This document shows, in pieces, positions 17,329 to 59,357 of a stretch of DNA of 64,000 nt. This stretch comes from Candidatus Nomurabacteria bacterium RIFCSPLOWO2_01_FULL_41_18. Its GTDB lineage: Bacteria > Patescibacteriota > Minisyncoccia > Phycocordibacterales > UBA9973. A program made the translations under genes and the position numbers. Position 1 is the first letter of the stretch, and each line of letters starts with the position of its first letter. The DNA is taken from positions 22,128-86,127 of the forward strand of contig MFUZ01000002.1 in assembly GCA_001785865.1 (NCBI GenBank), in the 5' to 3' direction. The notes under the pieces were generated by a model. It had not been told where the DNA came from and did no database searches. It was given only the letters and a program-made list of their open reading frames with translations.

Positions 17329-17390
17329 AATTACTTTAGCATATATATGCCATTTTTCCATTTTTTCTGTTATACTCCCTCTGTAATTTT

Positions 17391-26272: not shown

Positions 26273-26273
26273 A

Positions 26274-26645
26274 ATGCCAAAAATGAAAAACATATTAATA
26301 TTTATAGCGATCGCGGCGATTTTCGTGGCTATCTATTTCTTCTATATCAGAAAGTCTTCAGATTCTGACAAGAATTTGGTTTCTGCTCCCGCGACTACCG
26401 CCCTTCCCGCAGCTGGATCGCCTGCTACTGGGGTTGCAGACTCAAAAATAGCTCAGGAATTCTTGAACTTGCTCCTTAGTGTTAAAAATATTAAATTAGA
26501 CGATTCTATTTTTTCGGACGAAGCTTTTGTGAGCCTGCATGATTCTAGCATCACGCTTACGCCGGACGGAAATGAAGGCAGGGTAAACCCATTTGCTCCG
26601 ATCGGCACCGACGCAGTAACAGCGGACAATCCGCCTTCAAATTAG
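26274..26645 (+). CDS. hypothetical small membrane-anchored protein (possible PilP analogue)
   Basis: N-terminal TM helix and a Pro/Ala-rich linker. Assigned by position only. Confidence 0.3.
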   Translation: MPKMKNILIFIAIAAIFVAIYFFYIRKSSDSDKNLVSAPATTALPAAGSPATGVADSKIAQEFLNLLLSVKNIKLDDSIFSDEAFVSLHDSSITLTPDGNEGRVNPFAPIGTDAVTADNPPSN

Positions 26646-26647
26646 CT

Positions 26648-28396: not shown

Positions 28397-28401
28397 AATT
28401 T

Positions 28402-28486
28402 CCCCCTCCTTAATAAGGAGGGGAACAAGGGGAGGTTCTTAAAGAATTTACCTCTCCCCAGCCCTCTCCTTGTAAAGGAGAGGGGG
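28402..28486. repeat. two tandem family-1 palindromic units (CCCCCTCCTTAATAAGGAGGGG; CCCTCTCCTTGTAAAGGAGAGGG)
   Basis: Perfect stem-loops in the pilB-to-response-regulator spacer. Confidence 0.8.
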
Positions 28487-28499
28487 AAAGTAGTATAAT

Positions 28500-28910
28500 A
28501 TGCTTTATATGGAAGGACAAAAAAGAAAAATTTTTATAGTTGACGACGACAGTTTCCTTTTAGACATGTATGCGCTCAAATTTAGCCAAAACAATTTCGA
28601 AGTTTACACTGCCATGAGTGGAGAGGAGGCGATAGAGAAATTGAAAGGCGGGCTCAATCCGGATGTCGTGCTGGCAGATATAATCATGCCTGGCATTAAT
28701 GGTTTTGAGATGCTGGCGCAGTTAAATTCGGAAAATTTATCCTCGAACTCTTTGAAGATAGTTTTGTCCAACAAGAGCCAGCAGTCGGATATAGAAGAGA
28801 GTAAGAAGCTCGGGGTGGCAGGTTATATTGTCAAAGCGAATTCTACCCCAGCGGAGGTTATCAATCAGGTCATTAGTATCGTATCGGCGAAAGTCGGGGC
28901 TCCTAAATAA
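28500..28910 (+). CDS. response regulator receiver-domain protein (CheY/PilH-like)
   Basis: 'IFIVDDDSFLLDMY...VVLADIIMPGINGFEM...KIVLSNK' is a REC domain with no output domain. Confidence 0.8.
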   Translation: MLYMEGQKRKIFIVDDDSFLLDMYALKFSQNNFEVYTAMSGEEAIEKLKGGLNPDVVLADIIMPGINGFEMLAQLNSENLSSNSLKIVLSNKSQQSDIEESKKLGVAGYIVKANSTPAEVINQVISIVSAKVGAPK

Positions 28911-28915
28911 AAAAT

Positions 28916-29974
28916 ATGAATTATAAAGAAAAACTTGAAGAACTTATCCTGACTGTCATCCGCGAAGGCGGATCGGATCTGCATTTGGGCACCGGGCGCG
29001 TGCCAGTCATCCGCGTCGCTGGGGAACTCATATCCTTGGTAAAGCATCCGGTTTTTACTGAAGAAGATACAATGGGAGTTTTAAGCGAGGTTTTGGAAAA
29101 GAAGATCTTAGATAGATTTCTTGAAAATCAAGAAGCGGATTTTTCCTATGATTATCGGGGCGAAGCACGCCTCCGCGGGAATGCTTTTTTTCAGAAGGGA
29201 CTTATTTGCATAGTTTTTCGGCTGGTGCCGAAGGTAAAAACTATGGCTGAATTGCATCTGCCTCCCATTCTGGCCGACTTGGCTCGAAAGAAGCAAGGCT
29301 TTTTCCTGGTAGTCGGTCCGGTAGGGCAAGGAAAATCAACCACTCTTTCTGCGATGGTGGACTTGATCAACAATGAGCAAGCGCGCAATATTATCACCAT
29401 CGAAGATCCGATTGAACATGTGTATGTTCCTAATAAATCCATAATCAATCAGCGAGAAGTCGGCATCGATACCAGCGATTTTCATGTGGCACTCAAATCT
29501 GTTTTCCGCGAGGACGTAAATGTGATCTTGATCGGCGAAATGCGCACCCCGGAAACAGTGGCCACGGCTGTGACTGCAGCGGAGACAGGGCACCTCGTGC
29601 TCTCGACTCTTCATACGAACAACGCCGCTCAGACCATAGATAGAATAATAGATTCTTTTCCAGGCGAACAACAGGATCAGATTCGCACCCAGCTTGCATC
29701 CAGTCTTCTTGGCATTTTCTCGCAAAGACTCATCCCTAGGATCACTGGCGGGCTCATTCCGGCTTATGAGCTCCTCCTCAACAACAACGCAGTCTCGAAT
29801 CTGATCCGGGAGAAACGCACGCATGAGATAGACGTCGTCATAGAAACCGGCTCGGGGTCCGGGATGATCGATCTAAACCATTCGCTGACGGAACTAGTGC
29901 GCGCCGGAGAAATATCGATAGAAAATGCCTACCAATATTCTCTCAATCCAAAGGGTTTAGAAAGAATGATTTAG
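28916..29974 (+). CDS. pilT: twitching motility ATPase PilT
   Basis: Walker A 'VVGPVGQGKSTTLSAM' and PilT-type Asp/His boxes, about 350 aa. Confidence 0.9.
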   Translation: MNYKEKLEELILTVIREGGSDLHLGTGRVPVIRVAGELISLVKHPVFTEEDTMGVLSEVLEKKILDRFLENQEADFSYDYRGEARLRGNAFFQKGLICIVFRLVPKVKTMAELHLPPILADLARKKQGFFLVVGPVGQGKSTTLSAMVDLINNEQARNIITIEDPIEHVYVPNKSIINQREVGIDTSDFHVALKSVFREDVNVILIGEMRTPETVATAVTAAETGHLVLSTLHTNNAAQTIDRIIDSFPGEQQDQIRTQLASSLLGIFSQRLIPRITGGLIPAYELLLNNNAVSNLIREKRTHEIDVVIETGSGSGMIDLNHSLTELVRAGEISIENAYQYSLNPKGLERMI

Positions 29975-30016
29975 GCTTTATAACTTTATGAACTTTCAAC
30001 TTTATAACCCATAGCC

Positions 30017-31225
30017 ATGTTATTCAAATACAAAGCAATAGATGGAGGGGGTGGAAATAAGGAAGGGGAAATCGACGCGCCAAATCGCGATATGGCGATA
30101 AGTGGTTTGCAGAGGAGGGGGTTGGTGATCATTTCCATCAAGGACGAAAAAGAAAACAAATCCATTTTTGAGATTTCTTTTTTTGAGAAAGTTTCAAATA
30201 AGGACGTGGTGATCTTGTCCCGCCAGATCGCTACTTTGTTTGAAGCGCAAGTCTCTGCTCTTAAAGCTTTCACTATGCTTGCTACCAATACTGAGAACAA
30301 ACTACTCGGCAAGAAGCTAAACATGGTGGGCGATGATCTTCGGGCGGGTATTTCCATTTCCGGGGCGCTCGCTAGGCACCCAGATGTGTTTTCCAATTTT
30401 TACGTGAACATGGTCAAAGTGGGAGAGGAAACAGGAAAGCTAAACGAGACCTTCTTGCATTTGGCGGAATATCTGGATCGCCAGTATGCGCTCACTTCAA
30501 AGACGAGGAATGCGCTCATTTACCCTGTATTCGTGATCGTGACTTTCATAGTGGTGATGACCCTCATGTTCGTGATAGTGATCCCGAAACTTTCCGCGAT
30601 CATCCTCGATTCCGGGCAGGAAGTGCCCATCTATACAAAAATAGTTATCTTTATTTCAAATCTCTTCGTGCATTACGGCTTCTTTCTCTTGATATTTGTG
30701 GTCTTGCTTGGCCTCTGGTCTTGGAGGCTTGCGATCACCGAGAGGGGGAAAGAGTATCTGGATTCATTAAAGCTCTCTCTGCCAGCTGTAGGTAATCTGT
30801 ATAAAAAATTATATCTCTCCCGCATCACCGACAACTTGAATACGATGCTTATCTCCGGTGTGCCGATCGTCCGATCCATAGATATTACCGCAGAAGTAGT
30901 CGGTAGCCGCGTATATAGGAATCTCTTGAAAGAAGTGGCAGACGGGGTCAAATCCGGCTTGGCGCTTTCAGTCGCCTTCGATAAGCACAAGCAAGAAATC
31001 CCAAACATCCTGGTGCAGATGGTGCAGGTGGGTGAAGAAACAGGCGCGCTCGGAACTATATTAAAAACGCTGACTGATTTCTATAAACGCGAGGTGGATG
31101 ACGCCATTGATACCTTGGTGGGCTTGATAGAGCCAGTTATGATAGTGGTTCTCGGTTTGGGGGTAGGTTTATTGCTTGTTTCGATACTGATGCCGATTTA
31201 CAATTTGGCAGGAGGGATTAGTTAA
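30017..31225 (+). CDS. pilC: type IV pilus inner-membrane platform protein PilC (GspF family)
   Basis: A duplicated GspF domain with 3 TM segments, about 400 aa. Confidence 0.9.
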   Translation: MLFKYKAIDGGGGNKEGEIDAPNRDMAISGLQRRGLVIISIKDEKENKSIFEISFFEKVSNKDVVILSRQIATLFEAQVSALKAFTMLATNTENKLLGKKLNMVGDDLRAGISISGALARHPDVFSNFYVNMVKVGEETGKLNETFLHLAEYLDRQYALTSKTRNALIYPVFVIVTFIVVMTLMFVIVIPKLSAIILDSGQEVPIYTKIVIFISNLFVHYGFFLLIFVVLLGLWSWRLAITERGKEYLDSLKLSLPAVGNLYKKLYLSRITDNLNTMLISGVPIVRSIDITAEVVGSRVYRNLLKEVADGVKSGLALSVAFDKHKQEIPNILVQMVQVGEETGALGTILKTLTDFYKREVDDAIDTLVGLIEPVMIVVLGLGVGLLLVSILMPIYNLAGGIS

Positions 31226-31226
31226 T

Positions 31227-31312
31227 CACCACCCCGTAGCCCCTCCTCAATAAGGAGGGGAGGAATCCCTCTCCTCCTTTGGAAGGAGGAGTGCCCGAAG
31301 GGCGAGGTGGTG
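31227..31312. repeat. family-1 nested palindrome (CACCACC...CCCCTCCTCAATAAGGAGGGG...CTCCTCCTTTGGAAGGAGGAG...GCCCGAAGGGC...GGTGGTG)
   Basis: An outer 7-bp inverted repeat encloses three inner hairpins, immediately after the pilC stop. Confidence 0.8.
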
Positions 31313-31435
31313 CCTGTGGATAACTCACTTGTGCATATGTTTTGATGTATATGTTATAATTCAGCTATTAAAAATAAGTCGAAATTTCCGCCATAGGCGG
31401 ATAAGGTTATAAATTATTAATAATTAATTTTTATT

Positions 31436-31801
31436 ATGAAAATGAATTTGAAAAAAGGTTTTACGCTTATAGAACTCTTGGTGGTCGTTGCAATTATCGG
31501 TATTTTGGCTTCAGTTGTTTTGGCATCGCTAAATACGGCTAGACAAAAAGGTCAAACTGCCGCTTTCAAGGCAGAAATGTCTGGCTTGCGTGCAAACATA
31601 GTTCTCTACTGTGACGGTGTTGCCGATGGTGATGCTAATATAACCACTATTCCCGGAGGTACTACTTTCACAATGCCAGTAGCGGGTGTTGATTGCTTAG
31701 CGGCTGGAACTACTGTTAACCCTACTATTATTGCTGGGAAAGGGGGAACTTGTACTGCTGCTACTGTTACGGAATCTTTGATTACATTTACTGGTTGTTA
31801 A
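31436..31801 (+). CDS. pilA: type IV pilin (major pilin candidate)
   Basis: The prepilin signal 'KKGFTLIELLVVVAIIGILASVVLASL' has the G|FTLIE cleavage/methylation motif. It is Cys-containing and 121 aa long. Confidence 0.8.
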   Translation: MKMNLKKGFTLIELLVVVAIIGILASVVLASLNTARQKGQTAAFKAEMSGLRANIVLYCDGVADGDANITTIPGGTTFTMPVAGVDCLAAGTTVNPTIIAGKGGTCTAATVTESLITFTGC

Positions 31802-31902
31802 TGAGAGCAAGCGAGTAGAGTCCTTGATATTAGGGAAAAAGTCATCCACAAGATGGCTTTTTCTTTTACCATTTTGTTTTTTAATCGTGCTATAATAAAT
31901 GA

Positions 31903-32733
31903 ATGTTTTCATTGTTAACGGTTATCTTTTTTGCTCTCGGCCTCATCATCGGCAGTTTTTTAAATGTGGTAATTTTACGGCTGAACACAAAGAAAACACT
32001 CGGCGGGAGGAGTGCTTGCATGGTGTGTCAGAGAGAGCTCCGTTGGTACGAGCTCATTCCTGTTTTCAGTTTTTTTACCCTACAGGGCAGATGTCGCACT
32101 TGCAAAACCAAGATCTCCATTCAGTATCCGCTGGTAGAGCTCACCTCTGGGATCATTTTCGCGCTCATATTTTTAAAGTTTTCCACATTGAGCGGGTTCG
32201 TATCCCAGGCAAACGATTGGTATGTTTGGTTTAGTCCGGAGTTCTTGATCCCTTTTTTATTCTATGCAACTGCTTTTTCTATCCTGCTTGTCATCGCAGT
32301 CTACGACTTGCGTCACAAAATAATTCCTGACTTACTAGCATTCATTTTCGGAGTGCTCGCTTTTATCGGTCTTTTCTTATTTTCTAGTTATAATTTATAT
32401 TTGCATGTTCCTTCCGTTTGGGAATTTTTAGCTGGACCGTTCATTGCCCTGCCTTTTGCTTTTTTTTGGCTCGTATCCCGTGGCAGGTGGATGGGTCTGG
32501 GAGATGCCAAGCTCGGGCTCGGTATCGGCTGGCTACTTGGCCTCACGGGTGCGCTTTCGGGCCTGGTGATCGCTTTTTGGGTGGGGGCCATAGTCGGAGT
32601 TGCCCTCATTATTATTTCCAAAAGCAGACGAAAAGGCAGAATGGGGATGAAAAGCGAAATTCCATTTGCTCCGTTTTTGGTCCTGGGAACATTCCTCGCA
32701 TTTATGTGCGGGTTTAACTTTTTTGGATTATGA
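31903..32733 (+). CDS. pilD: prepilin peptidase PilD (A24 family)
   Basis: The N-terminal tetracysteine 'CMVCQREL...CRTCKTKI' and a polytopic A24 core. Confidence 0.85.
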   Translation: MFSLLTVIFFALGLIIGSFLNVVILRLNTKKTLGGRSACMVCQRELRWYELIPVFSFFTLQGRCRTCKTKISIQYPLVELTSGIIFALIFLKFSTLSGFVSQANDWYVWFSPEFLIPFLFYATAFSILLVIAVYDLRHKIIPDLLAFIFGVLAFIGLFLFSSYNLYLHVPSVWEFLAGPFIALPFAFFWLVSRGRWMGLGDAKLGLGIGWLLGLTGALSGLVIAFWVGAIVGVALIIISKSRRKGRMGMKSEIPFAPFLVLGTFLAFMCGFNFFGL

Positions 32734-33440
32734 AAAAATTATTTAAAATAGAAAAGAATAAGAGACTTGCCCGCTGTCAGGCGGGGATGACCCATTCGAT
32801 TAACTCAGGCCTTCGCTCTGAGACTCAGGCTCGAAGAGGTCATCCCGAGTATTCCCGAGGGATGACCTATGTGGAGCTCATCGTCGTCTTGAGTATTTTT
32901 GCAGTGATGTCTACAATTGTGATGTTCAGCTACAACAAATTTCAGGCGAAAGTGGACGTCAAGAATCTAGCGAGCGATATTGCTTTGAAAATTATCGAGG
33001 CGCAAAAGTCCGCGGTAAATGGTGTTTTGCCTTTCGGCTACACTCCCGACGTCGATCCTTGGAAGCCGTCTTATGGGATTTATTTTAATAAATCTTTAAA
33101 TCCGGATCCAGATAATAACAATACTCCCTTCAATGAAGAATTTACTTATTTTGCTGATTTAGATCAAGGTGGCGATTTAGATAATCTTGAGGTCTTAAAT
33201 TTTACTAAAATTATAAAAGGCGATACCATATCTAGTATAGAAGAATGTGATAGTGGTGGTTGTAGCTCAATTGGGGGGGATGATTTAACTATTATTTTTA
33301 CTAGACCAGATTCCAGTGCAGTTTTTTCCAGTGGCACAAGTGGTTCAGATTATATTCAAATCACTGTAGAATCCCATAGGTCGTCTGATATTAAAGCAAA
33401 AATCAAGATTTATCCTTCTGGCAGGGTGCAAATAGATTAG
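32730..33440 (+). CDS. pilin-like protein with an unusually long (about 45-aa) leader containing a repeat-element insertion
   Basis: The prepilin motif 'RG|MTYVELIVVLSIFAVM' is preceded by 'MKKLFKIEKNKRLARCQAGMTHSINSGLRSETQARRGHPEYS', and that leader is encoded by a palindromic repeat. Confidence 0.6.
   Translation: MKKLFKIEKNKRLARCQAGMTHSINSGLRSETQARRGHPEYSRGMTYVELIVVLSIFAVMSTIVMFSYNKFQAKVDVKNLASDIALKIIEAQKSAVNGVLPFGYTPDVDPWKPSYGIYFNKSLNPDPDNNNTPFNEEFTYFADLDQGGDLDNLEVLNFTKIIKGDTISSIEECDSGGCSSIGGDDLTIIFTRPDSSAVFSSGTSGSDYIQITVESHRSSDIKAKIKIYPSGRVQID
32770..32867. repeat. palindromic MITE-like element (GGGATGACC...CTCAGGCCTTCGCTCTGAGACTCAGGCTCGAAGAGG...GGTCATCCC) inside the pilin-like leader
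   Basis: Nested inverted repeats. It shares the CAGGCTCGAAGAGGT module with the ligA insertion at 35800. Confidence 0.6.
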
Positions 33441-33476
33441 CTTTTAGGTTTTGGCTCATAGCTTGTAGAATACAAA

Positions 33477-34142
33477 ATGCAAAACAAGATTAAAAAAATA
33501 AATACTGGTCGTCAGATCCTGAACTTGTCGAAGGGCTATACGATAATCGAAACGATGATCTCCGTTTCGCTTTTTCTTGTTATTGTCATGGCGGGCATGG
33601 GTGCGCTCCTCAATTCTAATTTGCTTCATCAAAAATCTCGAGACATGCGCTCCATTATGGATAATTTAAGCTTCATTATGGAAGACTTGTCGAAGAACTT
33701 GAGGACTGGGTACAATTATCATTGTGTTGATGATCTTTCTAATGATTTTACTATACCAGCAAGTGGTGAAGATTGTTTTGGAATTGCGTTTGAACATCAG
33801 GATGGTGAAGAAAGCGATCCAAGTGATCAGTGGGTTTATATCATAGGTAATGATGGTAAGATTTATAAATCAACGGAAAATGCTGCTGGTAGCGAAAATT
33901 TTGTTCAACTTACTCCCGACGAAATCGAGATTGATACAACCAAGTCCGGGTTTTCAGTAACAGGCGCAGAACCGCCTGATATCTGCGAGCCCCCAACTTG
34001 TATCCCTCGGACCGTAACAGGGAATAAGGAGCAGCCTTTTGTTATAATTAGATTAACCGGAACCATAACTTCAAAAAATACTATTGAAACACCTTTTTCT
34101 TTACAGACCTCAGTTTCACAACGAGCCATAGATAAAAGATAA
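33477..34142 (+). CDS. minor pilin / pseudopilin
   Basis: Prepilin-type N-terminus 'KGYTIIETMISVSLFLVIVMAG'. Confidence 0.6.
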   Translation: MQNKIKKINTGRQILNLSKGYTIIETMISVSLFLVIVMAGMGALLNSNLLHQKSRDMRSIMDNLSFIMEDLSKNLRTGYNYHCVDDLSNDFTIPASGEDCFGIAFEHQDGEESDPSDQWVYIIGNDGKIYKSTENAAGSENFVQLTPDEIEIDTTKSGFSVTGAEPPDICEPPTCIPRTVTGNKEQPFVIIRLTGTITSKNTIETPFSLQTSVSQRAIDKR

Positions 34143-34149
34143 TAAAAAA

Positions 34150-34707
34150 ATGAAATTATTTTTTAAAAAATTTAATACTTCTAATCAGGGATTTACTCTA
34201 GTGGAGACACTTGTGGCCATTTCAATTTTTACTGTGTCAATCCTGGGCATGATGTCCGTCTTGGCCTCCGGCGTTTCTAGTACTAGTTATGCCAGGCAGA
34301 AGATATTAGCCGGATATTTAGCGCAGGAGGGCATAGAATATGTGCGGAATATGCGGGATACTTATATGTTATACCCTTTAGGAGCAAACGATTGGGATGG
34401 TTTTAATAATGAATTTACTTCTTGCAAGCCAACGCCTGGCAATCCCAAAGGTTGTGGTTTTAATGTCACTGATTTTCCTTATGATTTTACTGTGTGTCAA
34501 TCTAATGGTGGAAATTGCGAATTGTATTTAGATGACGAGGGATATAACATTACCAGTGGAGAAGAAACTGGTTTTATCCGCAGAGTTTGGGTGGAAGAAA
34601 TCGAACCAGATAAAGAAGCAAAAATTTTTTCCAAAGTTGAATGGACACAGGGTTCTGGCAATAAAGAAGTCATTTTTTCAGAGAATTTATTTAATTGGGT
34701 GGAATAA
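34150..34707 (+). CDS. minor pilin / pseudopilin
   Basis: Prepilin-type N-terminus 'QGFTLVETLVAISIFTVSILGMMS'. Confidence 0.6.
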   Translation: MKLFFKKFNTSNQGFTLVETLVAISIFTVSILGMMSVLASGVSSTSYARQKILAGYLAQEGIEYVRNMRDTYMLYPLGANDWDGFNNEFTSCKPTPGNPKGCGFNVTDFPYDFTVCQSNGGNCELYLDDEGYNITSGEETGFIRRVWVEEIEPDKEAKIFSKVEWTQGSGNKEVIFSENLFNWVE

Positions 34708-35240
34708 TTATGATACTAGAAATAAAAAAACAGAAAAATGAGGCCTGCCCGCAATGCTTAAAGCATAGCTTTTGCAGGCGAGGATTCGTAATGCTTTTTG
34801 CAGTTACTCTGTCGGCGCTCGTCTTGGCTATGGCCTTAGGAGTATCCGACATAGCGTTTAGAGAATTGCAATTTGGCACTTCAGCCAGAGATACCAACGA
34901 GGCATTTTTTGCCGCCGATATCGGCTATGAATGCGCGCTCTATTACGACCAGCCTTCCACAAGGCTTTTTCCTCATTTTACTGAAGATCCTTCTCCTCCT
35001 TCCGTACCTAATCCAGAATGCGCTGGTTACGGAGTTGTTGTTTTTCCTACTGATACAAATGAATGGGAATTTACTTTACATGATCTGGGTCAGACAGAAC
35101 AAGCTTGCGCTAAGGTAACTGTTGATAAGTCGACCCCAAACACTATTATTACTTCCAACGGATATAATGTTGGTAATCAGAACTGCGAGCCAGTAGCAAA
35201 TAGTGTAGAACGACAACTAGAAATAACATATCGAAGATAA
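34695..35240 (+). CDS. PilX-like minor pilin / pilus-associated protein
   Basis: Hydrophobic N-terminal segment 'VMLFAVTLSALVLAMALGVS'. The probable start is the internal Met at about 34710. Confidence 0.4.
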   Translation: MGGIIMILEIKKQKNEACPQCLKHSFCRRGFVMLFAVTLSALVLAMALGVSDIAFRELQFGTSARDTNEAFFAADIGYECALYYDQPSTRLFPHFTEDPSPPSVPNPECAGYGVVVFPTDTNEWEFTLHDLGQTEQACAKVTVDKSTPNTIITSNGYNVGNQNCEPVANSVERQLEITYRR

Positions 35241-37412
<2,172 letters not shown>

Positions 37413-37515: not shown

Positions 37516-38379
37516 ATGAAAAATATTTTCAAAAAAATATTACTGCTAAATAAAAAAGAAGGAGAAACCCCGCTAGAAGCTCTAGAGAATTTTCGCAGAA
37601 AGAAAAGCAAGAAAAATAAAAAATATAAAGATGTGAAGATGACTTATGCTGGACGTCTAGACCCCATGGCGAGTGGACTTTTACTTGTGTTAGCAGGCGG
37701 AGAAACAAAAAATAAAGAAAAATATTTAGCTTTAGAAAAAGAGTATGAATTCAGTGTGCTTTTTGGTTTTGCGACAGATACATATGATATTTTAGGAAGA
37801 GCACAATATTCCAACATTCTAAAGAACATTAGAACGATAAGATCAAAAAGTGAGTTAGAAAAAAAGATAAAAGAGAATTTGAAATCTTTTGTCGGTAAAT
37901 TTAAACAAAAATACCCGATGTATTCATCAAAAACAGTTCATGGTAAGCCACTTTTTACCTATGCGAGAGCGGGAAAGGCGGTAGAAAGTCCAGAGCATGA
38001 GGTGAATGTAAAGAGTTTGAAGTTTCTTAAAATAAGTAAAATAAATAATACAAAACTTTTAGCTAATATTGAAAAAAGAATAAAAAAAGTAAAAGGGGAC
38101 TTTCGACAGAAAGAAATCTTAAAAATTTGGCGGAGATATCTCAAGGCAAATCAGATAAAAAATTCCTCCGCTTTCCTCCACGCTACGCGTGGACCCTTCC
38201 GCGTTCAGAATTCTTTATCTGATTTGCCTGTATTTTTCATTGCTGATTTTTACATCAAATGTGGTAGTGGGACTTATGTGAGAAGTATCGCTAACGACTT
38301 AGGAAGAAAGATTAAAATCCCAGCACTTGCCCTCTCTATCAAAAGAACAAAAATTGGCAAGTGGAGGCAAGTGGAGTAG
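37516..38379 (+). CDS. truB: tRNA pseudouridine(55) synthase TruB (with in-frame family-2 insertion)
   Basis: 'AGRLDPMASGLLLVLAGGETK' is the catalytic Asp motif. The gene starts directly after the tRNA CCA. Confidence 0.8.
   Translation: MKNIFKKILLLNKKEGETPLEALENFRRKKSKKNKKYKDVKMTYAGRLDPMASGLLLVLAGGETKNKEKYLALEKEYEFSVLFGFATDTYDILGRAQYSNILKNIRTIRSKSELEKKIKENLKSFVGKFKQKYPMYSSKTVHGKPLFTYARAGKAVESPEHEVNVKSLKFLKISKINNTKLLANIEKRIKKVKGDFRQKEILKIWRRYLKANQIKNSSAFLHATRGPFRVQNSLSDLPVFFIADFYIKCGSGTYVRSIANDLGRKIKIPALALSIKRTKIGKWRQVE
38156..38217. repeat. family-2 palindromic element in-frame in truB (encodes KNSSAFLHATRGPFRVQNS)
   Basis: GAATTCCTCCGC...TTCCTCCACGCTACGCGTGGACCCTTCCGCGTTCAGAATTC. Confidence 0.75.
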
Positions 38380-43558: not shown

Positions 43559-44344
43559 ATGAAAAAAGAAACAAAAAAGGCTACAGAACATCCACTTTCT
43601 ATATTGGCGAATCAGGCTTATGAAGCTTTTGCGGAGATGGGTTTTGAAATTGGAACCGGGCCGGAACTTGAAAGTGACTGGTATAATTTTTATGTCTTGA
43701 ATTTTCCAAAGGATCACCCAGCACTTGATATGCAGGACACTTTTTGGATCAAAGACCCGAAGAAGCTTGTTGAAAATTCTTCCGCATTCCTCCAACCTTC
43801 GGTCGGAACCTTCCGCGGAGAGAATTCTCAACAAGCTTCTTCTCTCGTACTTCGAACGCACACCACAACTGTCACAGCTCGTGAACTTGAAAAGGCTGGC
43901 AAAGAGGGCAGACTGCCCGCTGCTTTTATTTCTGTGGGTAAGGTTTTCCGAAATGAGGCAACTGACATCACTCACGAAATGCAATTTTTTCAGATAGATG
44001 GAGCGATGGTAGGCGAAAATATTTCTCTTGCTGATTTGAAAGGAGTACTCACGAATTTTTACAAAAAAATGCTTGGAGAAAATACCGAAATAGAATTTAG
44101 GCCAAGTTTTTTTCCTTTTACCGAACCATCCATTGAAGTTTTCGCTAAATTTAATGGCAAGTGGCTGGAAATGATGGGTGCAGGAATGCTTCATCCGAAT
44201 GTTTTGCGTAACATTGGTCTTGACCCATCGAAAGTCCAAGGTTTTGCTTTTGGCGGAGGGCTGGACCGTATTGCGATGATCAAATGGAATATTCCCGATG
44301 TGCGTTTGTTTTATCAAGGAGATCTAAGGCTCAATCAGTTTTAA
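43559..44344 (+). CDS. pheS: phenylalanine--tRNA ligase alpha subunit (short form, with in-frame family-2 insertion)
   Basis: 'DTFWI...LRTHTT', and class II motifs 'FISVGKVFRNEATDITHEMQFFQIDG' and 'GFAFGGGLDRIAM'. Confidence 0.9.
   Translation: MKKETKKATEHPLSILANQAYEAFAEMGFEIGTGPELESDWYNFYVLNFPKDHPALDMQDTFWIKDPKKLVENSSAFLQPSVGTFRGENSQQASSLVLRTHTTTVTARELEKAGKEGRLPAAFISVGKVFRNEATDITHEMQFFQIDGAMVGENISLADLKGVLTNFYKKMLGENTEIEFRPSFFPFTEPSIEVFAKFNGKWLEMMGAGMLHPNVLRNIGLDPSKVQGFAFGGGLDRIAMIKWNIPDVRLFYQGDLRLNQF
43756..43845. repeat. family-2 palindromic element, extended about 90-bp form with 27-nt terminal inverted repeats, in-frame in pheS (encodes PKKLVENSSAFLQPSVGTFRGENSQQASSLV)
   Basis: GAAGAAGCTTGTTGAAAATTCTTCCGC...GCGGAGAGAATTCTCAACAAGCTTCTTC. 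It lies between conserved DTFWI and LRTHT blocks, where other PheS proteins have about 5 aa. Confidence 0.8.
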
Positions 44345-44350: not shown

Positions 44351-46198
44351 ATGAAAATTTCTTACAATTGGCTTAAATGGTATATACCGGAAGCTCCTAC
44401 AGCAGAGAAACTTGTAGATATTTTCAATTATCATCTTTGTGAAGTTGAAACTTTAACTCCCATCCTTGGGGAGGAGGGGGTAGGGGGTGGTGATTATGTT
44501 TTGGATTTAAAAATTTTACCAAATCGCGCGCATGATTTACTTTCGCATCAAGGCCTTGCTCGCGAGCTTGCATCGCTTCTAAATATTCCATATGTTGACC
44601 CGACCCCGAAATACAAAATTCCCACCTCCGCTAAAGCTACGGCGGGCAAGCCTGAATTGAAAATTTATGTGAAAACATCTCTTTGCCGGAGATATATGGG
44701 AAGAATTGTGAGAAATATAAAGGTGGGACCATCACCACAATGGGTGGTCGATCACTTAGAATCAATAGGGCAGAGAAGCATAAATAATATGGTGGATGCT
44801 GCGAATATTGTTATGTATGACTGTGGTCAGCCAACTCACGTTTTTGATTTGGACAAAGTGAAAAATGAAATAATCATTCGTGATGCCAAAGATGGGGAGG
44901 ATTTGACTACACTTGATAATAAAGCAGTAAAATTAAAAAACTCAAATGTAGTAATTGCTGATTCTAAAAATGCTCTGGCTATCGCCGGCATAAAGGGCGG
45001 GAAAATTGCCGAGGTAGGCAATAATACGAAAAATATAATTCTTGAGGTTGCCAACTTTGATCCTACATCTGTTCGAAAGACAGCTCAAGCCTTAAATATT
45101 TTTACTGATGCGAGAAAGCGATTTGAAAATGATTTATCTCCAGAATTAGCGTCTTATGCAATGTTGGAGCTTTCTGCACTTATTTTTGAAATGTGCCCGG
45201 AGGCTGTTTTTGAGGATGTTGTAGATGTTTACCCGAACTCTCAAGAGGGCGGGTTTATCCGAAAACTTTCTTTTTCAACTGATAGAATTTCAAAGATTTT
45301 AGGTTTAAAGGTTTCCGATAAAGAGATAGAAGATATTTTAAAAAGGTACGTAATTAATTACGTAATTAAAGAAAACAAGTTTGAAATTACTATTCCTCCT
45401 ATGCGCCTAGATCTAGTGATAGAAGAAGATATGGCAGAAGAGATAGGCAGGATTTTGGGATACGATAAAGTAAAAGGGAATATTCCTAAAATAAACTTCA
45501 AACCAAAACAGAATGAAACTTATTCAAAGATAACTTCTGCGAGAAATAAATTGCTTGCGGATGGGTATAGCGAGGTTATGACCTATTCTTTTTGTGATAA
45601 GGGAGAGATTGAAGTGCAAAACAGCGCTTCTGATAAAAAGTTTTTGCGGACGAATCTAACTGACGGACTGAAAGAAAGCATAAAATTAAACCGCTTAAAT
45701 GCTCCGTTTTTAGGAATTGAACAGGTCAAGGTTTTTGAAATTGGAACTATGTTCAAGAAAAGTGGGGAAGAAATGCATGTGGCGTATGGAGATAAAAAAG
45801 GGATTAAAGAAGAAAAATTAGAAGAATTTAGCGAAAAGCTGGAGAAAAATTCTTTGACTTTCCTCCAGCCTTCGGCCGGAACCTTCCGTCCGAAAAATTC
45901 TTCTCCAGCTTTTCGCATGTGGTCACTTTTTCCTTTTATTGCGCGAGACATTGCTGTGTTTGTTCCTGAAAATGTAAAAAGTTCTAAAGTATTAAAAATT
46001 ATTAAAGACAATGCAGGGGATATGGTGGTAAGAGGTCCGGAGCTTTTTGATGAATTCAAAAAGGAAGGCAAAGTTTCCTATGCGTTTAGAATAGTTTTTC
46101 AATCTTATGACCGCACCCTGACAGACGGAGAGGTGAATGAAATCATGAATAAAATAACTGACAAAATTAAAGCAAATAATGGTTGGCAGGCGAGATAA
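44351..46198 (+). CDS. pheT: phenylalanine--tRNA ligase beta subunit (short form, with repeat insertions)
   Basis: N-terminal 'MKISYNWLKWYIP', a B3/B4 domain, and a C-terminal FDX-ACB-like region. Confidence 0.85.
   Translation: MKISYNWLKWYIPEAPTAEKLVDIFNYHLCEVETLTPILGEEGVGGGDYVLDLKILPNRAHDLLSHQGLARELASLLNIPYVDPTPKYKIPTSAKATAGKPELKIYVKTSLCRRYMGRIVRNIKVGPSPQWVVDHLESIGQRSINNMVDAANIVMYDCGQPTHVFDLDKVKNEIIIRDAKDGEDLTTLDNKAVKLKNSNVVIADSKNALAIAGIKGGKIAEVGNNTKNIILEVANFDPTSVRKTAQALNIFTDARKRFENDLSPELASYAMLELSALIFEMCPEAVFEDVVDVYPNSQEGGFIRKLSFSTDRISKILGLKVSDKEIEDILKRYVINYVIKENKFEITIPPMRLDLVIEEDMAEEIGRILGYDKVKGNIPKINFKPKQNETYSKITSARNKLLADGYSEVMTYSFCDKGEIEVQNSASDKKFLRTNLTDGLKESIKLNRLNAPFLGIEQVKVFEIGTMFKKSGEEMHVAYGDKKGIKEEKLEEFSEKLEKNSLTFLQPSAGTFRPKNSSPAFRMWSLFPFIARDIAVFVPENVKSSKVLKIIKDNAGDMVVRGPELFDEFKKEGKVSYAFRIVFQSYDRTLTDGEVNEIMNKITDKIKANNGWQAR
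44460..44492. repeat. degenerate family-1 fragment in-frame in pheT (encodes LGEEGVGGG)
   Basis: The reverse complement CACCACCCCCTACCCCCTCCTCCCCAAGGATGGG aligns to the 31227 element CACCACCCCGTAGCCCCTCCTCAATAAGGAGGGG. Confidence 0.5.
45347..45368. repeat. TACGTAATTAATTACGTA palindrome inside pheT (encodes RYVINYVIK)
   Basis: A perfect 18-nt palindrome related to the intergenic 28-nt palindrome at 17301. Confidence 0.55.
45842..45905. repeat. family-2 palindromic element in-frame in pheT (encodes KNSLTFLQPSAGTFRPKNSS)
   Basis: GAGAAAAATTCTTTGAC TTTCCTCCAGCCTTCGGCCGGAACCTTCC GTCCGAAAAATTCTTCTC. Confidence 0.8.
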
Positions 46199-54743: not shown

Positions 54744-54786
54744 AACCCCCTCCCAACCTCCCCCTTGTTAAGGGGGAGGGGAAAAC
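54744..54786. repeat. family-1 palindromic repeat (CCTCCCCCTTGTTAAGGGGGAGG)
   Basis: A perfect 9-bp stem with a GTTA loop directly after the smc stop. Confidence 0.75.
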
Positions 54787-54863: not shown

Positions 54864-56789
54864 TTATGGAGTTGGGAACTTCACCTTCTCCTCCTTACCT
54901 TCCATAATTTGATCCGGCTGAAAGGCGGAGTTTAGCTCCATTGTATTTTTTTTCACCGCTATCTCGCCATTTCGACTCAATTTCATTTCGAGAAGCATAC
55001 CCTGCATGGTCGGCTCACTCCAAGACTGGTCAAAGATGAAGTTTCCGAGCGAATAAATAATGTAGCTCATGCACGAACTTTGAGTGCAACCTTTTCTGCT
55101 GTAAACTTCAGTGTCTTCGATGACATGCGGATGGTGCCCGATGACTACTTTGGCGCCGGCGTCTACGGCTTTATGCGCTAGATATTCCTGTCTAGCATTG
55201 TGCTTTGGTTTATACTCGTCGCCGAAATGAAAGGAAACCAAAAGATAGTCCACTTGCTTTGCGGCATTTGCTACTATTTCATCAAAGCGTGGATCGCTCG
55301 CTAGTAGCTGGCCTGCTTTATCTGTGCCTGCCTCCATCCAAGTGGGTCCGACGTCAGAGAAGCCCAAAAATCCGATCTTCATCCCGTATTTTTCAATGAT
55401 TGCCGGAGTTTCAGCTTCTTCTTTGGTGTTGCCGCCACCGGTGTAAAGTATTTCGTTTTCCGTGAGGCGCGAGAGGGAATCAATATACGCTAACCGCCCC
55501 CAATCTCCGATGTGATTATTGGCGACCGAGAGCACACTGATGCCTGCTCCTTTCAAGGCCGGAATTGTCTCGGGATCCATCCTAAATGAATACAAATTTC
55601 GAAGGTCGGCGCCCTTGTTCGATGCCGGCCCCTCCAAATTAGCAAAGACAATGTCGGATTTTTTCAATATGTCTCTCAATACCTTCGATTTTTCAAAAAG
55701 CTTGGAGTAATCCCCATTGAAGTTTTTCCTGACTGAATTTTTGACTCCGCGGTCCATCATTATATCGCCTCCGAAAGTGAGTGTTATAAAATTCGGATCC
55801 TTTATGTTCGGCGTTCCTATCTTTTCTTCTACCCAATTCGTGCTTGCGTCCGCTGGTCCTCCGTAGTAAATATTTTTCTTCAAGTAGTTTAAGATATTTT
55901 CTACATCACTCCGGCGGTCAGGGCTTTGGAGCAAAGTGATTGCGATCGGGCGAACGCCGGTTTCTCCGAGCGGCAGGTTGAAAAGGGAGACCACCGTCTG
56001 TTTGGCCGGATCGGTGTATCCGCTCTTTCCGCCGAAGTAACCGTCCTTATCCAAGAACTGGCTGATATTAGACCAGCTGTGGGTCTTGTTCGAATAACTG
56101 CGCGTGGTGGTGATATCAAGGAGGCCACTCCTTTGTTCTTTCAAGTATCCAGTCAGTTTGAAAAGATCGGAAACGGTAGATTGGTTCTGTGCAGAGAGCC
56201 CACTTGGGTCCTCATACGTAGTCGAAGACATTTTTAGGTTTTCCGCCTGCTGATTCATCTTGGCGATGAATGTCTCTCTGTCAAAATGCTCTGCCAGGGC
56301 TTCGGCCGCATCATTGCTTGATTCGAGCAAGAGAGGGTAGAGAAGCTCCTTCGTCTGTATTTTCTCTCTATCTCGAAGATTGCCGTTTGAACCGTAAGTT
56401 GCCAAGGATCTTTTGCTTATTTCTACGACGTCATCCGGGGGCGAGATTAGATCGGCCACTAGCGCGGTCATGAGTTTGGACACGGAGGCGATTGGGAATT
56501 TCTTGTCTTGATTTTTAGCGAGTATCACTTCGCCAGTATTCAAGTCGCCGACCAGATAAGCAGCCGCTCCTACCTTGGGCTCTTCCTCCCCATTGTTTAG
56601 ATAGAAATATTTTGGTTTCGCATCTTTTGCTGAAATGAAAGATTGCGAGACTGTGGCGGTATTGCTTTTAGATTCCCATATTTTTGCAAAATCTGTATTT
56701 TTGAAAGCAAGAGTGGTGAGTGCAACAAGCGAAATACCCAGTATCACTGGAAACATACCCCACACCAATAATCCGATTTTTTTTCTCAT
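54864..56789 (-). CDS. fusion of D-alanyl-D-alanine carboxypeptidase (S11/PBP5-like) and CapA-family metallophosphoesterase
   Basis: The N-terminal half has SxxK 'ASVSKLM', SxN 'SSND' and 'GKSGYT'. The C-terminal half has 'GGDIMMDR', 'NLEGP' and 'GHHPHVIE', which are CapA motifs. Confidence 0.7.
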   Translation of the reverse strand: MRKKIGLLVWGMFPVILGISLVALTTLAFKNTDFAKIWESKSNTATVSQSFISAKDAKPKYFYLNNGEEEPKVGAAAYLVGDLNTGEVILAKNQDKKFPIASVSKLMTALVADLISPPDDVVEISKRSLATYGSNGNLRDREKIQTKELLYPLLLESSNDAAEALAEHFDRETFIAKMNQQAENLKMSSTTYEDPSGLSAQNQSTVSDLFKLTGYLKEQRSGLLDITTTRSYSNKTHSWSNISQFLDKDGYFGGKSGYTDPAKQTVVSLFNLPLGETGVRPIAITLLQSPDRRSDVENILNYLKKNIYYGGPADASTNWVEEKIGTPNIKDPNFITLTFGGDIMMDRGVKNSVRKNFNGDYSKLFEKSKVLRDILKKSDIVFANLEGPASNKGADLRNLYSFRMDPETIPALKGAGISVLSVANNHIGDWGRLAYIDSLSRLTENEILYTGGGNTKEEAETPAIIEKYGMKIGFLGFSDVGPTWMEAGTDKAGQLLASDPRFDEIVANAAKQVDYLLVSFHFGDEYKPKHNARQEYLAHKAVDAGAKVVIGHHPHVIEDTEVYSRKGCTQSSCMSYIIYSLGNFIFDQSWSEPTMQGMLLEMKLSRNGEIAVKKNTMELNSAFQPDQIMEGKEEKVKFPTP

Positions 56790-58816
56790 AATAAAATATA
56801 ATCTATTGTTTTTCGTTCCAAATCAACCCCTTTTACTTTTATTTTGACTTTATCTCCTAATTTATATTTCTTTTTTCTCTTTTGTCCGACCAATTCCAAT
56901 TTTTTCTCATTGAAAATATAAAAGTCGTCTTTCATATCTCTCACTCGCACCAAGCCTTCGCATTTTGTTTCTGTTTCTTCCACATAGATGCCCCATTCTG
57001 TGATTCCACTTATTACTCCTTCAAAACTTTCACCTGTGCGTTTTGACATATATTCCACCTGTTTGTATTTTATAGAAGCTCGTTCAGCATCTGATGCACG
57101 TTTTTCCTGTTCGGAAGAAATTCGCGCAGTCTTTTCATATTCTAACAAATGTTCTTTACTTACTTTTTTCCCAGACAAATAATCAGTGAGAAGTCTGTGT
57201 ACTATTATATCTGGATACCGCCTAATAGGAGAAGTGAAATGTGTATAATATTCAAATGCCAGACCATAATGCCCGATGTTCTTTGTGGAATAAATCGCTT
57301 TCGCCATTGACCTGATGACTGCTCTATTTACTGTTCCTTCTTCATTTTTACCCTCTAATTTTTTTAGAAGTTTATTTATTTCATGACTTGAAATAATTCC
57401 GTTTACCAAAGATATTTTATGTCCTAAACTTCGCAAAAAATATGCGAGGTCTGCCATTTTTTCTTTACTTGGAAGATCATGAATGCGATAAAGAGAAAGA
57501 TTTTTGGAAAGTATTTCAGCAACTTTTTTGTTTGCCAAAAGCATGAATTCTTCAACTAGTCTATTTGAATCACCGCGTTCTTTGGTGATGACTTTTATCG
57601 GCACTCCCGTAGGGTCTAAAACAAATTTTACTTCTTCTTGCTCGAGCGATATGGCACCATTTTTAAATCTTTCAGTGGTTAAGAGTTTTGCTAAATTATT
57701 TAAAATTGCTAATTCTTTGTGTAGGGGATCGCCAGTCTTTTTGATTGCCTCGCCCGTGGCCGGTCTATGGCCGAGGGATTCTTCTGCCTCTTCATAAGTA
57801 AATCTTTTCTGCGAATGTATTACTGTGCGTCCGTACCACTCGCTTTTTACTTTTGCATTTTTATCAATAACAAAAACTGCGCTCATGGTGAGTCTGTCTT
57901 TATTTGGCACCAGGCTACACAAATCATTTGAAAGTTCTTCTGGAAGCATGGGTATGGTTCTGTCTACTAGGTATACCGAAGTTCCACGCTCACGTGCCTC
58001 CTTATCAAGAGCACTACCCACCTTTACATAGTGCGAAACGTCGGCGATGTGGATGCCTATTTCGAAAACCTCATCCCCCGCCTTCCCCTGGAAAGGGGAA
58101 GGGGCTTTCCCCCTCTCCTCTCCAGGAGAGGGTTGGGGTGAGGTTATTCTCCTAAAAGAAATCGCATCATCAAAGTCTTTTGCATCTGCTGGATCAATGG
58201 TAAAGGTTAAAATTTTTCTAAAATCACGGCGTCCCGCATAATCACTTTCTTTTATGCCACCCTTTTTTATTTCTTCTGCTTCTCTGTATACTTTTTCTGG
58301 TAATTTTGAATCAAACCCTTTTTCTATTGCGATGGCGTGCATTTCCGCGTCATTATCTCCAGGTGTGCCTAAAATTTTAGTTACTTTTCCTTCTGGAGCT
58401 TTGCGAGGGTCCGTCCAAGAGACTATTTCTGCAAAAACTTTCTGTCCAGCTTTGGCCCCGTTCAACATATTTTCAGGAATTAAAATATCCGTATACATTT
58501 TCGTATCGTCAGGTTTTAAGAAGAACATGCTACCTTGTAATTCCAAAACTCCAGCAAAACCAATTTTTGCCCGAGAAATTATTTTTGATACTTCTGCTGT
58601 CTGCCTATTTTTTCCTTTTGGATGCAGAACAATCTCTACAGTGTCTCCATGCAGTGCAGTATTGAGGTGTTTTGAATCAATTTCTGGATCCTGATTATTA
58701 TTTTTTCCCTGCCTACCGGCAGGCAGGTCGCCAACAGCTACATATCCTGTTCCTTTTGAAGTAATGGATATAATACCCTCTAATCTGTTGCTGGGGTTAT
58801 TTTTTGAGTTTTTCAC
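56786..58816 (-). CDS. rnr: ribonuclease R (RNB family 3'-5' exoribonuclease with C-terminal S1 domain), carrying an in-frame repeat insertion
   Basis: Cold-shock-like N-terminus, an RNB domain with 'DDAISF...GIHIADVSHYV', and a C-terminal S1 domain 'GVISGITEWGIYVE'. Confidence 0.9.
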   Translation of the reverse strand: MKNSKNNPSNRLEGIISITSKGTGYVAVGDLPAGRQGKNNNQDPEIDSKHLNTALHGDTVEIVLHPKGKNRQTAEVSKIISRAKIGFAGVLELQGSMFFLKPDDTKMYTDILIPENMLNGAKAGQKVFAEIVSWTDPRKAPEGKVTKILGTPGDNDAEMHAIAIEKGFDSKLPEKVYREAEEIKKGGIKESDYAGRRDFRKILTFTIDPADAKDFDDAISFRRITSPQPSPGEERGKAPSPFQGKAGDEVFEIGIHIADVSHYVKVGSALDKEARERGTSVYLVDRTIPMLPEELSNDLCSLVPNKDRLTMSAVFVIDKNAKVKSEWYGRTVIHSQKRFTYEEAEESLGHRPATGEAIKKTGDPLHKELAILNNLAKLLTTERFKNGAISLEQEEVKFVLDPTGVPIKVITKERGDSNRLVEEFMLLANKKVAEILSKNLSLYRIHDLPSKEKMADLAYFLRSLGHKISLVNGIISSHEINKLLKKLEGKNEEGTVNRAVIRSMAKAIYSTKNIGHYGLAFEYYTHFTSPIRRYPDIIVHRLLTDYLSGKKVSKEHLLEYEKTARISSEQEKRASDAERASIKYKQVEYMSKRTGESFEGVISGITEWGIYVEETETKCEGLVRVRDMKDDFYIFNEKKLELVGQKRKKKYKLGDKVKIKVKGVDLERKTIDYILL
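58068..58145. repeat. family-1 nested palindrome inserted in-frame in rnr next to the RNB catalytic Asp motif (encodes RRITSPQPSPGEERGKAPSPFQGKAGDE)
   Basis: AACCTCATCCCC...CCTTCCCCTGGAAAGGGGAAGG...CCCTCTCCTCTCCAGGAGAGGG...GGGGTGAGGTT. Confidence 0.8.
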
Positions 58817-59204: not shown

Positions 59205-59261
59205 CACCTCACCCGGCCATTGGCCACCCTCTCCTGTCAGGAGAGGGGCTGGGGGTGAGGT
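59205..59261. repeat. family-1 nested palindrome (CACCTCACCC..GGCCATTGGCC..CCCTCTCCTGTCAGGAGAGGG..GGGGGTGAGGT) after rpsP
   Basis: The outer 10-bp inverted repeat encloses two perfect inner palindromes. It probably acts as a terminator. Confidence 0.8.
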
Positions 59262-59357
59262 TCTTGTTGCGATAAAATTTTATTTAGTTATAATACAAGA
59301 AGCAGTTACGTCGGAACACTGCATGATTTATTAAGGTAAGTAATATTTATAAAAGTT

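Follow-up and report, generated by a model that had tools for sequence, protein, structure and literature searches.

The rnr gene of Candidatus Nomurabacteria bacterium RIFCSPLOWO2_01_FULL_41_18, an ultra-small bacterium that is uncultivated, contains a 79-nt GC-rich nested palindromic element (58067-58145, minus strand) next to the catalytic motif of the encoded RNase R. It was studied in a stretch of 64,000 nucleotides (assembly GCA_001785865.1, contig MFUZ01000002.1, positions 22,128 to 86,127), the whole of which is called the window here. Our results make it very likely that a selfish or neutral GC-rich mini-palindrome was inserted in frame in a permissive hairpin turn of the RNB domain and is translated there as a loop. 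This reading is directly supported by the filled and empty states of the orthologous site, the family membership of the element, the preservation of the reading frame, the purifying selection on the gene and the place of the insert between two strands.

The host gene rnr (56786-58816, minus strand) is an intact open reading frame (ORF) for an RNase R of 676 residues. Pfam identified CSD2 (residues 99-170), OB_RNB, RNB (196-548, E 6e-109, in one unbroken stretch) and S1 (593-672), which is the cold-shock/OB, RNB and S1 domain order of the RNase R family. The best PDB sequence matches of the product were the RNase R proteins of B. subtilis (8cdu, E 3e-118) and E. coli (5xgu). The RNB blocks are intact, and DPADAKDFDDA (motif I, residues 208-218, with D208, D214, D216 and D217; 58163-58195, minus strand), HIADVSHYV at residue 256 and YTHFTSPIRRYPD at residue 524 are all invariant across 96 orthologues. 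The final residue of motif I is 6 residues ahead of the insert, and the HIADV block (residues 256-260; 58037-58051, minus strand) starts 5 residues past it. The dN/dS of rnr was 0.068 (dN 0.10, dS 1.47) against its closest relative, the locus L161. As far as the sequence tells, the gene is functional and under strong purifying selection.

The element consists of codons 225-250 plus one base and encodes T225 to V250 (TSPQPSPGEERGKAPSPFQGKAGDEV), within the protein sequence DAKDFDDAISFRRITSPQPSPGEERGKAPSPFQGKAGDEVFEIGIHIADVSHYV / DFDDAISFRRITSPQPSPGEERGKAPSPFQGKAGDEVFEIGIHIADV. An earlier reading, made from the letters of the window alone (the sequence-only reading), had quoted the rnr translation exactly as we found it. 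Two outer arms of 11-13 nt enclose two inner hairpins, so that the coding strand runs from AACCTCACCCC to GGGGGATGAGGTT, in full AACCTCACCCC AA CCCTCTCCTGGAGAGGAGAGGG GGAAAG CCCCTTCCCCTTTCCAGGGGAAGG CG GGGGATGAGGTT. The left outer arm, AACCTCACCCC on the mRNA strand (58135-58145, minus), is common to the copies at 6114, 28450 and 59206 and to those of two other loci, L098 and L103. The right outer arm, GGGGGATGAGGTT on the mRNA strand (58067-58079, minus), has one A more than the consensus GGGGTGAGGT. The element begins with AACCTCA and ends with TGAGGTT, and the terminal inverted repeats of the family are the ACCTCACCCC and GGGGTGAGGT arms. Inner hairpin 1, CCCTCTCC..GGAGAGGG (58111-58132, minus), is the core module of the family, and the hairpin scan found the module also at 6128, 28462, 35754 and 59227. 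Inner hairpin 2, CCCCTTCCCC-TTTCCA-GGGGAAGG (58079-58104, minus), was found in the rnr copy only: with up to 3 mismatches allowed, nothing else in the window matched it, and GGCCATTGGCC takes its place in the 59205 copy.

The predicted fold is very stable: its energy is -60.5 kcal/mol for the element by itself and -65.5 kcal/mol when flanks are included (z = -6.3), a stability that none of 200 shuffles attained. Its G+C content is about 62%, versus about 40% for the window, and only 4 of its 6 frames are free of stops. In the window, Rfam at the gathering score reported only tmRNA and tRNAs and nothing at the insert; at E<=10 the insert gave only sub-threshold look-alikes of miRNA hairpins.

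The comparison with orthologues indicates that the element is an addition. The closest relative by DNA, L161 (protein P0002), is syntenic, and its RNase R, 84.5% identical in amino acids, is without the insert. The blastn alignment of the window with L161 was interrupted at 58064-58154 against 25 nt, so that the window is longer by a net 66 nt (22 codons). Consistently, the spacer from DDA to HIADV has 37 residues in the window protein and 15 in orthologues, a net gain of 22 residues. Among the matches listed, the spacer was exactly 15 residues in 77 of 79 homologues from the genome collection (Bacteroidota, Saccharibacteria and other members of the candidate phyla radiation, CPR). A value other than 15 was observed in just 4 of about 111 distant RNase R homologues. 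In the solved proteins it is 15 in B. subtilis (8cdu) and 16 in E. coli (5xgu), and 29 of 46 close loci have the short form. These lengths point to 15 residues as the ancestral state. The profile search of genome contigs gave only 4 close relatives among the matches listed, and the metagenome search gave about 45.

At the same time, an independent ENA assembly from another sample (L162, a 15.6-kb contig) was 99.92% identical to the window over 12.7 kb, without gaps and with the insert included. Comparison of orthologues, which the sequence-only reading had proposed as a check, thus found the insert absent in the syntenic L161 and present in L162. No segment of the same length, which that reading held would speak against an insertion, was found in unrelated RNase R proteins (15 residues in 77 of 79 and in about 107 of 111). 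An in-frame insertion between DDA and HIADV of the RNB active site was also borne out, with the ORF intact and the spacer at 37 versus 15. The proposed size did not hold in the same way: the reading gave 25 residues in its title, bracketed 29 and spanned 78 nt, whereas the element has 79 nt and the net gain is 22 residues. As the element has 79 nt and the gain is 66 nt, about 13 nt of the original turn were apparently lost or overwritten.

The place of the insert in the protein was examined with an AlphaFold model. With 96 orthologues the model reached a mean pLDDT of 76 and a pTM of 0.72, while 21 close sequences had given a pLDDT of 51. Foldseek superimposed it on 8cdu_C (TM 0.81/0.78) and 5xgu (TM 0.78/0.83), so its fold is that of solved RNase R. 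The model shows strands at residues 217-224 and 250-258 with a coil at 225-249 between them, and pLDDT falls below 50 at 233-242. Since strands stand on either side of the low-confidence coil and the model superposes on RNase R, the insert is modelled as an excursion at the tip of a beta-hairpin that follows the catalytic aspartates D208, D214, D216 and D217. The 22-residue loop is probably disordered, as judged from the model, and would be solvent-exposed and harmless. That the insertion lies in a loop, a point that the sequence-only reading had proposed to check, is therefore probable. The model has low confidence in two further places, residues 30-40 and 347-362, and these match two additional small palindrome-encoded inserts of rnr.

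The reading frame in this region was kept in all 46 complete close loci; 17 of them carry inserts, and none has a stop. The chance that a random insertion stays open and in frame is about 2/9 (4/6 frames times one length class in three). The conserved frame in all insert-bearing loci suggests selection on the translated sequence, which argues against ribosomal bypass. The insert thus appears to be translated and not skipped; the peptides predicted from the translated insert include ITSPQPSPGEER and APSPFQGK. Bypass, intein-like removal and pseudogenisation were rejected on the basis of frame conservation, dN/dS and the second assembly.

The rnr element belongs to a family that is dispersed over the window. 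The canonical form is (G)AACCTC(A/T)CCCC-NNN-CCCCTCTCC-loop-GGAGAGGGG-(linker or second hairpin)-GGGGTGAGGT. In its arms and first hairpin, the rnr copy matches the copies at 6114-6164 and 59205-59263, as well as elements in rnr of two other organisms, so the complete family palindrome that the sequence-only reading saw in rnr is confirmed. The copy at 6114-6164, with arms and one hairpin, is full and intergenic, upstream of rplT (copy alignment and Pfam of the neighbours). The full copy at 59205-59263 is located between rpsP and a KH-domain gene and is absent at that site in L161. Two half-elements (hairpin and arm, spacer, arm and hairpin) were found by the hairpin scan at 28403-28490, where they are intergenic and upstream of a response-regulator gene. 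The same scan gave a composite variant with CACCACCCC arms and two hairpins at 31223-31320, right past the end of the type II secretion (T2SS-F) gene. A related hairpin copy at 54745-54785 separates the convergent smc and PBP/PGA_cap genes, which abut without a spacer in L161.

Two other copies are inside genes. One is in frame in ligA (35749-35824, plus strand; residues 167-192, in the adenylation domain by Pfam), and E. coli LigA (2OWO) lacks 16+3 residues at this site. The other, a partial copy with a hairpin, is in frame in pheT (44457-44496, plus strand; residues 36-49 of the Pfam-assigned product). One genome thus holds many dispersed palindromic copies, and the in-frame copies in rnr, ligA and pheT leave the ORFs preserved. 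The copy alignment showed that modules were recombined between copies. In total, the window contains 27 GC-rich hairpins versus 4-7 in shuffles, and 15 of the 27 are within coding sequences. The left arm of the ligA hairpin (35749-35765, ATCCCCCTCTCCTTA) is translated as IPLSL, and the native residues of E. coli LigA in the alignment with it are IPLKL. It thus seems that native ligA codons were overwritten by element DNA with the residues retained. Family-1 palindromes also occur in two intergenic gaps of a cluster resembling type IV pilus and type II secretion systems (23725-35240), which encodes PilM, two T2SSE ATPases, a response regulator, T2SSF, a prepilin peptidase and several N-methyl pilin-like ORFs.

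The turn of the RNB hairpin is filled again and again in related organisms. The 120 closest proteins (73-100% identity; labelled Nomurabacteria, Paceibacterota or Parcubacteria by their sources), by which the host is Nomurabacteria-like, had a spacer of 14-15 residues in 59 cases and of 18-46 in 60 (119 counted). The inserts in 17 of the 46 close loci are all GC-rich and hairpin-forming, of several unrelated kinds, and each of them is flanked by ISF plus 2-3 codons on one side and by (L)YEIG on the other. Clustering of the inserts at the turn gave about 19 unrelated peptide types, the window type being a singleton. On a star-like tree, orthologues with a filled turn are mixed with those whose turn is empty. 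Among 111 distant RNase R proteins, only 3-5% have a turn of other than modal length. For the loops that follow residues 186, 363, 439 and 556, length variation affects 21-35% of these proteins, so the turn is not a generally indel-prone loop. GC-rich hairpins numbered 0.53 per kb in loci with a filled turn, 0.28 in loci with an empty turn and 0.07-0.09 in shuffles. The roughly doubled density at filled loci fits an occupancy that follows the element load. Palindromes were also found at no fewer than 15 other rnr positions, each in far fewer orthologues.

These results indicate that the turn is at least permissive. Because it is otherwise not length-variable, it may well also be a preferred target. 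No shared target motif was found at the insertion junctions of the loci compared. Directly upstream of the insertion point, at 58150-58170 and at the empty sites of L082, L084 and L161, the codons for ISFKEI form a near-palindrome rich in A/T, ATTTCTTT-T-AAAGAAAT. A similar sequence, TCTTAAAGAATTT, separates the two half-elements (28438-28450). The near-palindrome may be a target feature, or it may result by coincidence from codon usage.

In the proposed mechanism, the element is a small, non-autonomous GC-rich repeat, with ACCTCACCCC/GGGGTGAGGT arms around one or two CCCCTCTCC/GGAGAGGGG-type hairpins. It would have entered rnr after the split from the closest sampled relative, and would have landed in the turn of 3-4 codons in the beta-hairpin that joins motif I, with its catalytic Asp cluster, to the HIADV strand. 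The net gain of 66 nt with an open frame would leave the gene intact and produce a loop of 22 residues, rich in Pro, Gly, Ser, Glu and Lys, off the hairpin tip, with the catalytic core untouched. It is the gain of 66 nt and the open frame together that imply an intact rnr and a translated repeat. The element presumably has no function of its own in rnr, where it would be a selfish or neutral passenger.

Several observations weigh against this reading. Pfam found no transposase and no RAYT among the approximately 64 ORFs of the window, and no consistent target-site duplication was seen around the three full window copies or the copies of L098 and L103. Mobility is therefore deduced from distribution and not from mechanism. 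The occupancy of about 50% at one single turn exceeds what simple tolerance would lead one to expect. The element (79 nt) is longer than the net gain (66 nt). In addition, no second full-length copy of the two-hairpin version was present in the window or in the loci compared. As for other kinds of ends, attC-like sequences (RYYYAAC/GTTRRRY) were rejected by eye on the flanks.

The high occupancy could arise if the insertion process favours a DNA feature at the turn, for example ATTTCTTT-T-AAAGAAAT. Such targeting is compatible with a selfish palindrome, and we put it forward tentatively, as a real possibility. It would account for the GC-rich palindromes that fill the turn in 60 of the 119 close orthologues as well as in 17 of the 46 close loci, with about 19 unrelated clusters of peptides, and for the finding that the loops after 186, 363, 439 and 556 vary more in distant proteins yet gather far fewer palindromes in the clade. 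Three of five non-redundant full copies with ACCTCACCCC arms are inside rnr, in a sample of 2.2 Mb of loci that is itself centred on rnr. However, this sampling is biased to rnr, the junctions revealed neither a common target motif nor a duplication, the AT palindrome is imperfect in many empty sites, and at least 15 other rnr positions bear palindromes. A single ancient insertion in the ancestor of the clade, followed by sequence turnover (nesting, gene conversion) and repeated precise loss, is unlikely. Palindromes are deletion-prone, the interleaving of filled and empty orthologues on a star-like tree is in line with such a history, and the types DLSPTPLH..NGEGRRGE and PSL.KEG.GGG occur on many branches. 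But the empty form always has exactly 15 residues, the pattern of distant phyla, so many perfect excisions would be needed. Moreover, the window insert is a singleton type that the closest relatives P0002, P0003 and P0008 lack, and the unrelated families at the turn have no detectable common sequence. It is slightly less likely still that passive tolerance is the wrong frame altogether. On that view, a guild of cosmopolitan GC-rich palindromes with Shine-Dalgarno-like and anti-Shine-Dalgarno-like arms would target this rnr spot, with a mobilisation machinery that recognises some DNA or RNA feature there, or the occupancy would come from an interplay of structured-RNA elements with the single exoribonuclease able to degrade structured RNA, for instance through mRNA hairpins that tune RNase R levels.

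Functional roles were also considered for the insert. A hairpin of -60 kcal/mol in the rnr mRNA might modulate translation or decay, with possible autoregulation. The structure is very stable and rnr is recurrently occupied, RNase R degrades structured RNA, the element has Shine-Dalgarno-like GGAG/GAGG and anti-Shine-Dalgarno-like CCTCC runs, and intergenic module copies are often just upstream of start codons in the IMG/VR contigs listed. Still, we consider such a role improbable, as the inserts have no sequence relationship and measure between 15 and about 100 nt, half of the orthologues are without one, and no compensatory changes were found among orthologous insert copies. An even lower probability is given to the extra loop being a new interaction surface of RNase R. 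The insert is kept in two samples and the type CVIRPPRPSGTPPSQGETDL is conserved in a small clade of 10 sequences, but the peptides are unrelated, low-complexity and predicted to be disordered, and each is set by the palindrome sequence in whichever frame it landed. When B. subtilis RNase R is bound to the 30S subunit in state I, RNB touches the ribosome through its tri-helix region only (PMC10901742). It is highly improbable that the insert is left untranslated through ribosome bypass or RNA removal, in the manner of the byp elements of Magnusiomyces mitochondria. A precedent for GC-rich palindromes in coding regions exists (PMC8811140) and the hairpin is very stable, but in the 17 insert-bearing loci and in the window all lengths are multiples of 3, with no stop and no frame break that would call for bypass. 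The least credible of all is an assembly or chimera artefact, which was rejected: repeats can mislead assemblers, but the independent L162 carries the identical insert (12.7 kb, 99.92%, gapless) and the frame is preserved.

Members of the family are also found in other genomes. The same family was found in rnr of L098, at the same turn, and in that of L103, where the copy follows residue 94 and is almost identical to the window copy at 59205. The rnr-centred loci (L001-L162) carry flanks of 5-12 kb, too short for a census of the family. When ten hotspot inserts were searched against all loci by blastn-short, few extra copies appeared, and matches of 16/18 nt within each locus were likewise few. 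The core module was then sought in IMG/VR with the pattern ACCTCACCCC-N4-CCCTCTCC. This gave at least 149 copies on at least 120 contigs (L163-L282) with a G+C content of 37-68%, up to five per contig. The complementary GGAGAGGG arm, which was outside the query, followed after a short loop (mostly 3-7 nt) in 142 of the 145 IMG/VR copies listed. The half-element ACCTCACCCC-N4-CCCTCTCC-loop-GGAGAGGGG is often right after a stop codon or right upstream of an ATG in these contigs. A control pattern taken from the second palindrome family of the window gave 20 IMG/VR matches, which were non-palindromic and due to chance. The PLSDB matches to the core module were cyanobacterial plasmids only (H1-H6), and deposited phages gave one match. 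The GGAGAGGGG arm is Shine-Dalgarno-like and is paired to the anti-Shine-Dalgarno-like CCCCTCTCC arm. The occurrence of the core module in contigs of 37-68% G+C and in cyanobacterial plasmids points to a very widespread repeat without a name. No name for the element was found in the literature examined, and literature searches, sequence strings included, found no report of such intragenic palindromic or MITE-like elements in CPR, Patescibacteria or Parcubacteria.

We compared the element with known small repeats. Rickettsia palindromic elements (RPE; Ogata et al. 2000, 2002) are dispersed palindromes that occur both in intergenic regions and in frame in housekeeping genes, where they are translated (PMC10969869). 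The element resembles them in being a dispersed palindrome, in giving in-frame translated segments compatible with the host fold and in having no transposase of its own. RPE are about 100-150 bp long, limited to Rickettsia and with one conserved peptide per family. Unlike these, the rnr element has 79 nt, with relatives of 15 to about 100 nt. It is a GC-rich sequence within the AT-rich genome of a CPR bacterium and consists of shuffled modules. Its core module is spread over very different genomes. Yeast mitochondrial GC clusters are mostly intergenic, include in-frame insertions in var1, have terminal sequences common to clusters, and merge and shuffle (PMC8811140). They share with our element the short GC-rich palindromes in an AT-rich genome, the modularity and the in-frame coding inserts. 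Our element is bacterial and not from an organelle, and the AG/TAG terminal repeats of the clusters, taken as target duplications, are not seen here. The coding copies of byp elements in Magnusiomyces mitochondria, which derive from GC clusters, are bypassed (PMC8811140), whereas frame conservation indicates translation here. By analogy, RPE and yeast mitochondrial GC clusters seem closest in behaviour, but size and host make the element a member of neither.

Other bacterial repeats fit less well. REP/REPIN sequences are imperfect palindromes of 20-40 nt with a high copy number, single or in inverted pairs, mobilised by RAYT without target duplication (PMC3733652, PMC3116915). Imperfect palindromes, high copy number, single or paired occurrence and lack of target duplication are common to both. 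However, REP are extragenic by definition, while the rnr copy and at least two others are inside ORFs. Most REP have a GTAG or CGTC head (PMC3733652), and the element has neither; no RAYT (IS200/IS605-like Y1 transposase) was found by Pfam among the window ORFs, the window being the whole scope of that search. The MITEs of bacteria (miniature transposable elements with inverted repeats), such as Correia/NEMIS, ERIC and BOX, are small and non-autonomous with terminal inverted repeats, and some are in frame in genes (PMC10969869). The element has terminal inverted repeats and in-frame copies too. MITEs normally have a target-site duplication and a parent insertion sequence, but no duplication was seen around the element and no transposase within the window, and many of its relatives are far below MITE size. 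The matches in PLSDB, all cyanobacterial, lead to one more comparison. In cyanobacteria, small dispersed repeats are reportedly tiny hairpin mobile repeats, nested and also inside conserved genes (Elhai et al. 2008, Genome Res); hairpin formation, nesting and location in conserved genes would be shared with our element.

CPR/Patescibacteria genomes are held to be small and streamlined, and this window carries presumably selfish mini-palindromes in the essential genes rnr, ligA, pheS, pheT and truB. In RNase R, no more than six residues separate one of them from the catalytic aspartates. The turn is a natural insertion hotspot in an essential enzyme. It amounts to a natural insertion scan, in which a loop of RNB accepts 3-31 extra residues of almost any sequence, and may be of use in engineering and in reading structures. 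The approximately 19 unrelated inserts at one conserved turn also offer a tractable case for separating target choice from a selection filter. Pro/Gly-rich segments in CPR proteins need not mean misassembly or a new domain, and pipelines for annotation, alignment and structure prediction should expect them. What lifts the case above a routine repeat is the clade-wide hotspot in a catalytic domain together with the unexpectedly wide distribution of the core module.

Beyond what the sequence-only reading had reported, rnr contains two more small inserts, and its turn is repeatedly filled by different palindromes. The second insert (58706-58726, minus strand) encodes residues 31-37, LPAGRQG, from the hairpin-forming CTGCCTGCCGGTAGGCAG; it is absent in L161 and has a pLDDT below 50. 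The third, GC-rich insert (57746-57775, minus strand) encodes residues 348-357, LGHRPATGEA, also with a pLDDT below 50. The LGHRPATGEA mini-family occurs in reverse orientation after RNase R residue 554 in other orthologues (L004, L087), and the window insert is the reverse complement of the ASPVGLWPR insert at a different rnr position in other species. RNase R orthologues have tiny GC-rich hairpin inserts, of 5-12 codons each, at no fewer than 15 loop positions.

A second palindrome family, of 76 nt, is in frame in ligA, truB, pheS and pheT (36591-36666, 38149-38224, 43763-43838 and 45836-45911). These copies have the same strand and frame and encode ..NSSAFLQPS.GTFR..NS... Their core, AATTC.TCCG..TTCCTCCA.CCTTCGG..GGAACCTTCCG....GAATT, is conserved, while the outer stems of 11-17 bp differ between copies with near-perfect self-complementarity within each. 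Such copy-specific stems suggest structure-selected evolution or a copying process that regenerates one arm from the other. At the second-family sites, PheS of S. haemolyticus (2rhq) has a clean gap of 28 residues and the alignment with E. coli LigA breaks at 451-481. This family gave only chance matches in IMG/VR and none in the 162 rnr-centred loci.

Other repeats of the window are linked to tRNA genes. A 41-nt GC-rich double hairpin (AGCTCAGTTTCCGCCAGAGGCGGACCAGCCTTTGGCTG.GG) occurs twice with 98% identity, at 13475-13515 and 13842-13882 (region 13466-13935), each time preceded by the tRNA D-arm motif GTAGCTCAGTT or by the portion AGCTCAGTT of that motif. An ORF for a GIY-YIG nuclease (13529-13777, Pfam E 7e-15) and tRNA-Ile(TAT) at 13768-13841 are located between the two copies. 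Past the second copy, the sequence is like the anticodon and T arms of another tRNA-Ile(TAT); ARAGORN makes no call there, even with introns allowed or the hairpin removed. The region 13466-13935 may hold a disrupted or duplicated tRNA linked to a homing-type nuclease. At 17209-17478 there are two divergent tRNA-Ser genes: the minus-strand gene has the anticodon GCT, the plus-strand gene the unusual anticodon ACT. The AT-rich palindromic repeat D15 (GTACGTAATTAA..) is located between these two genes and recurs at 45346-45369.

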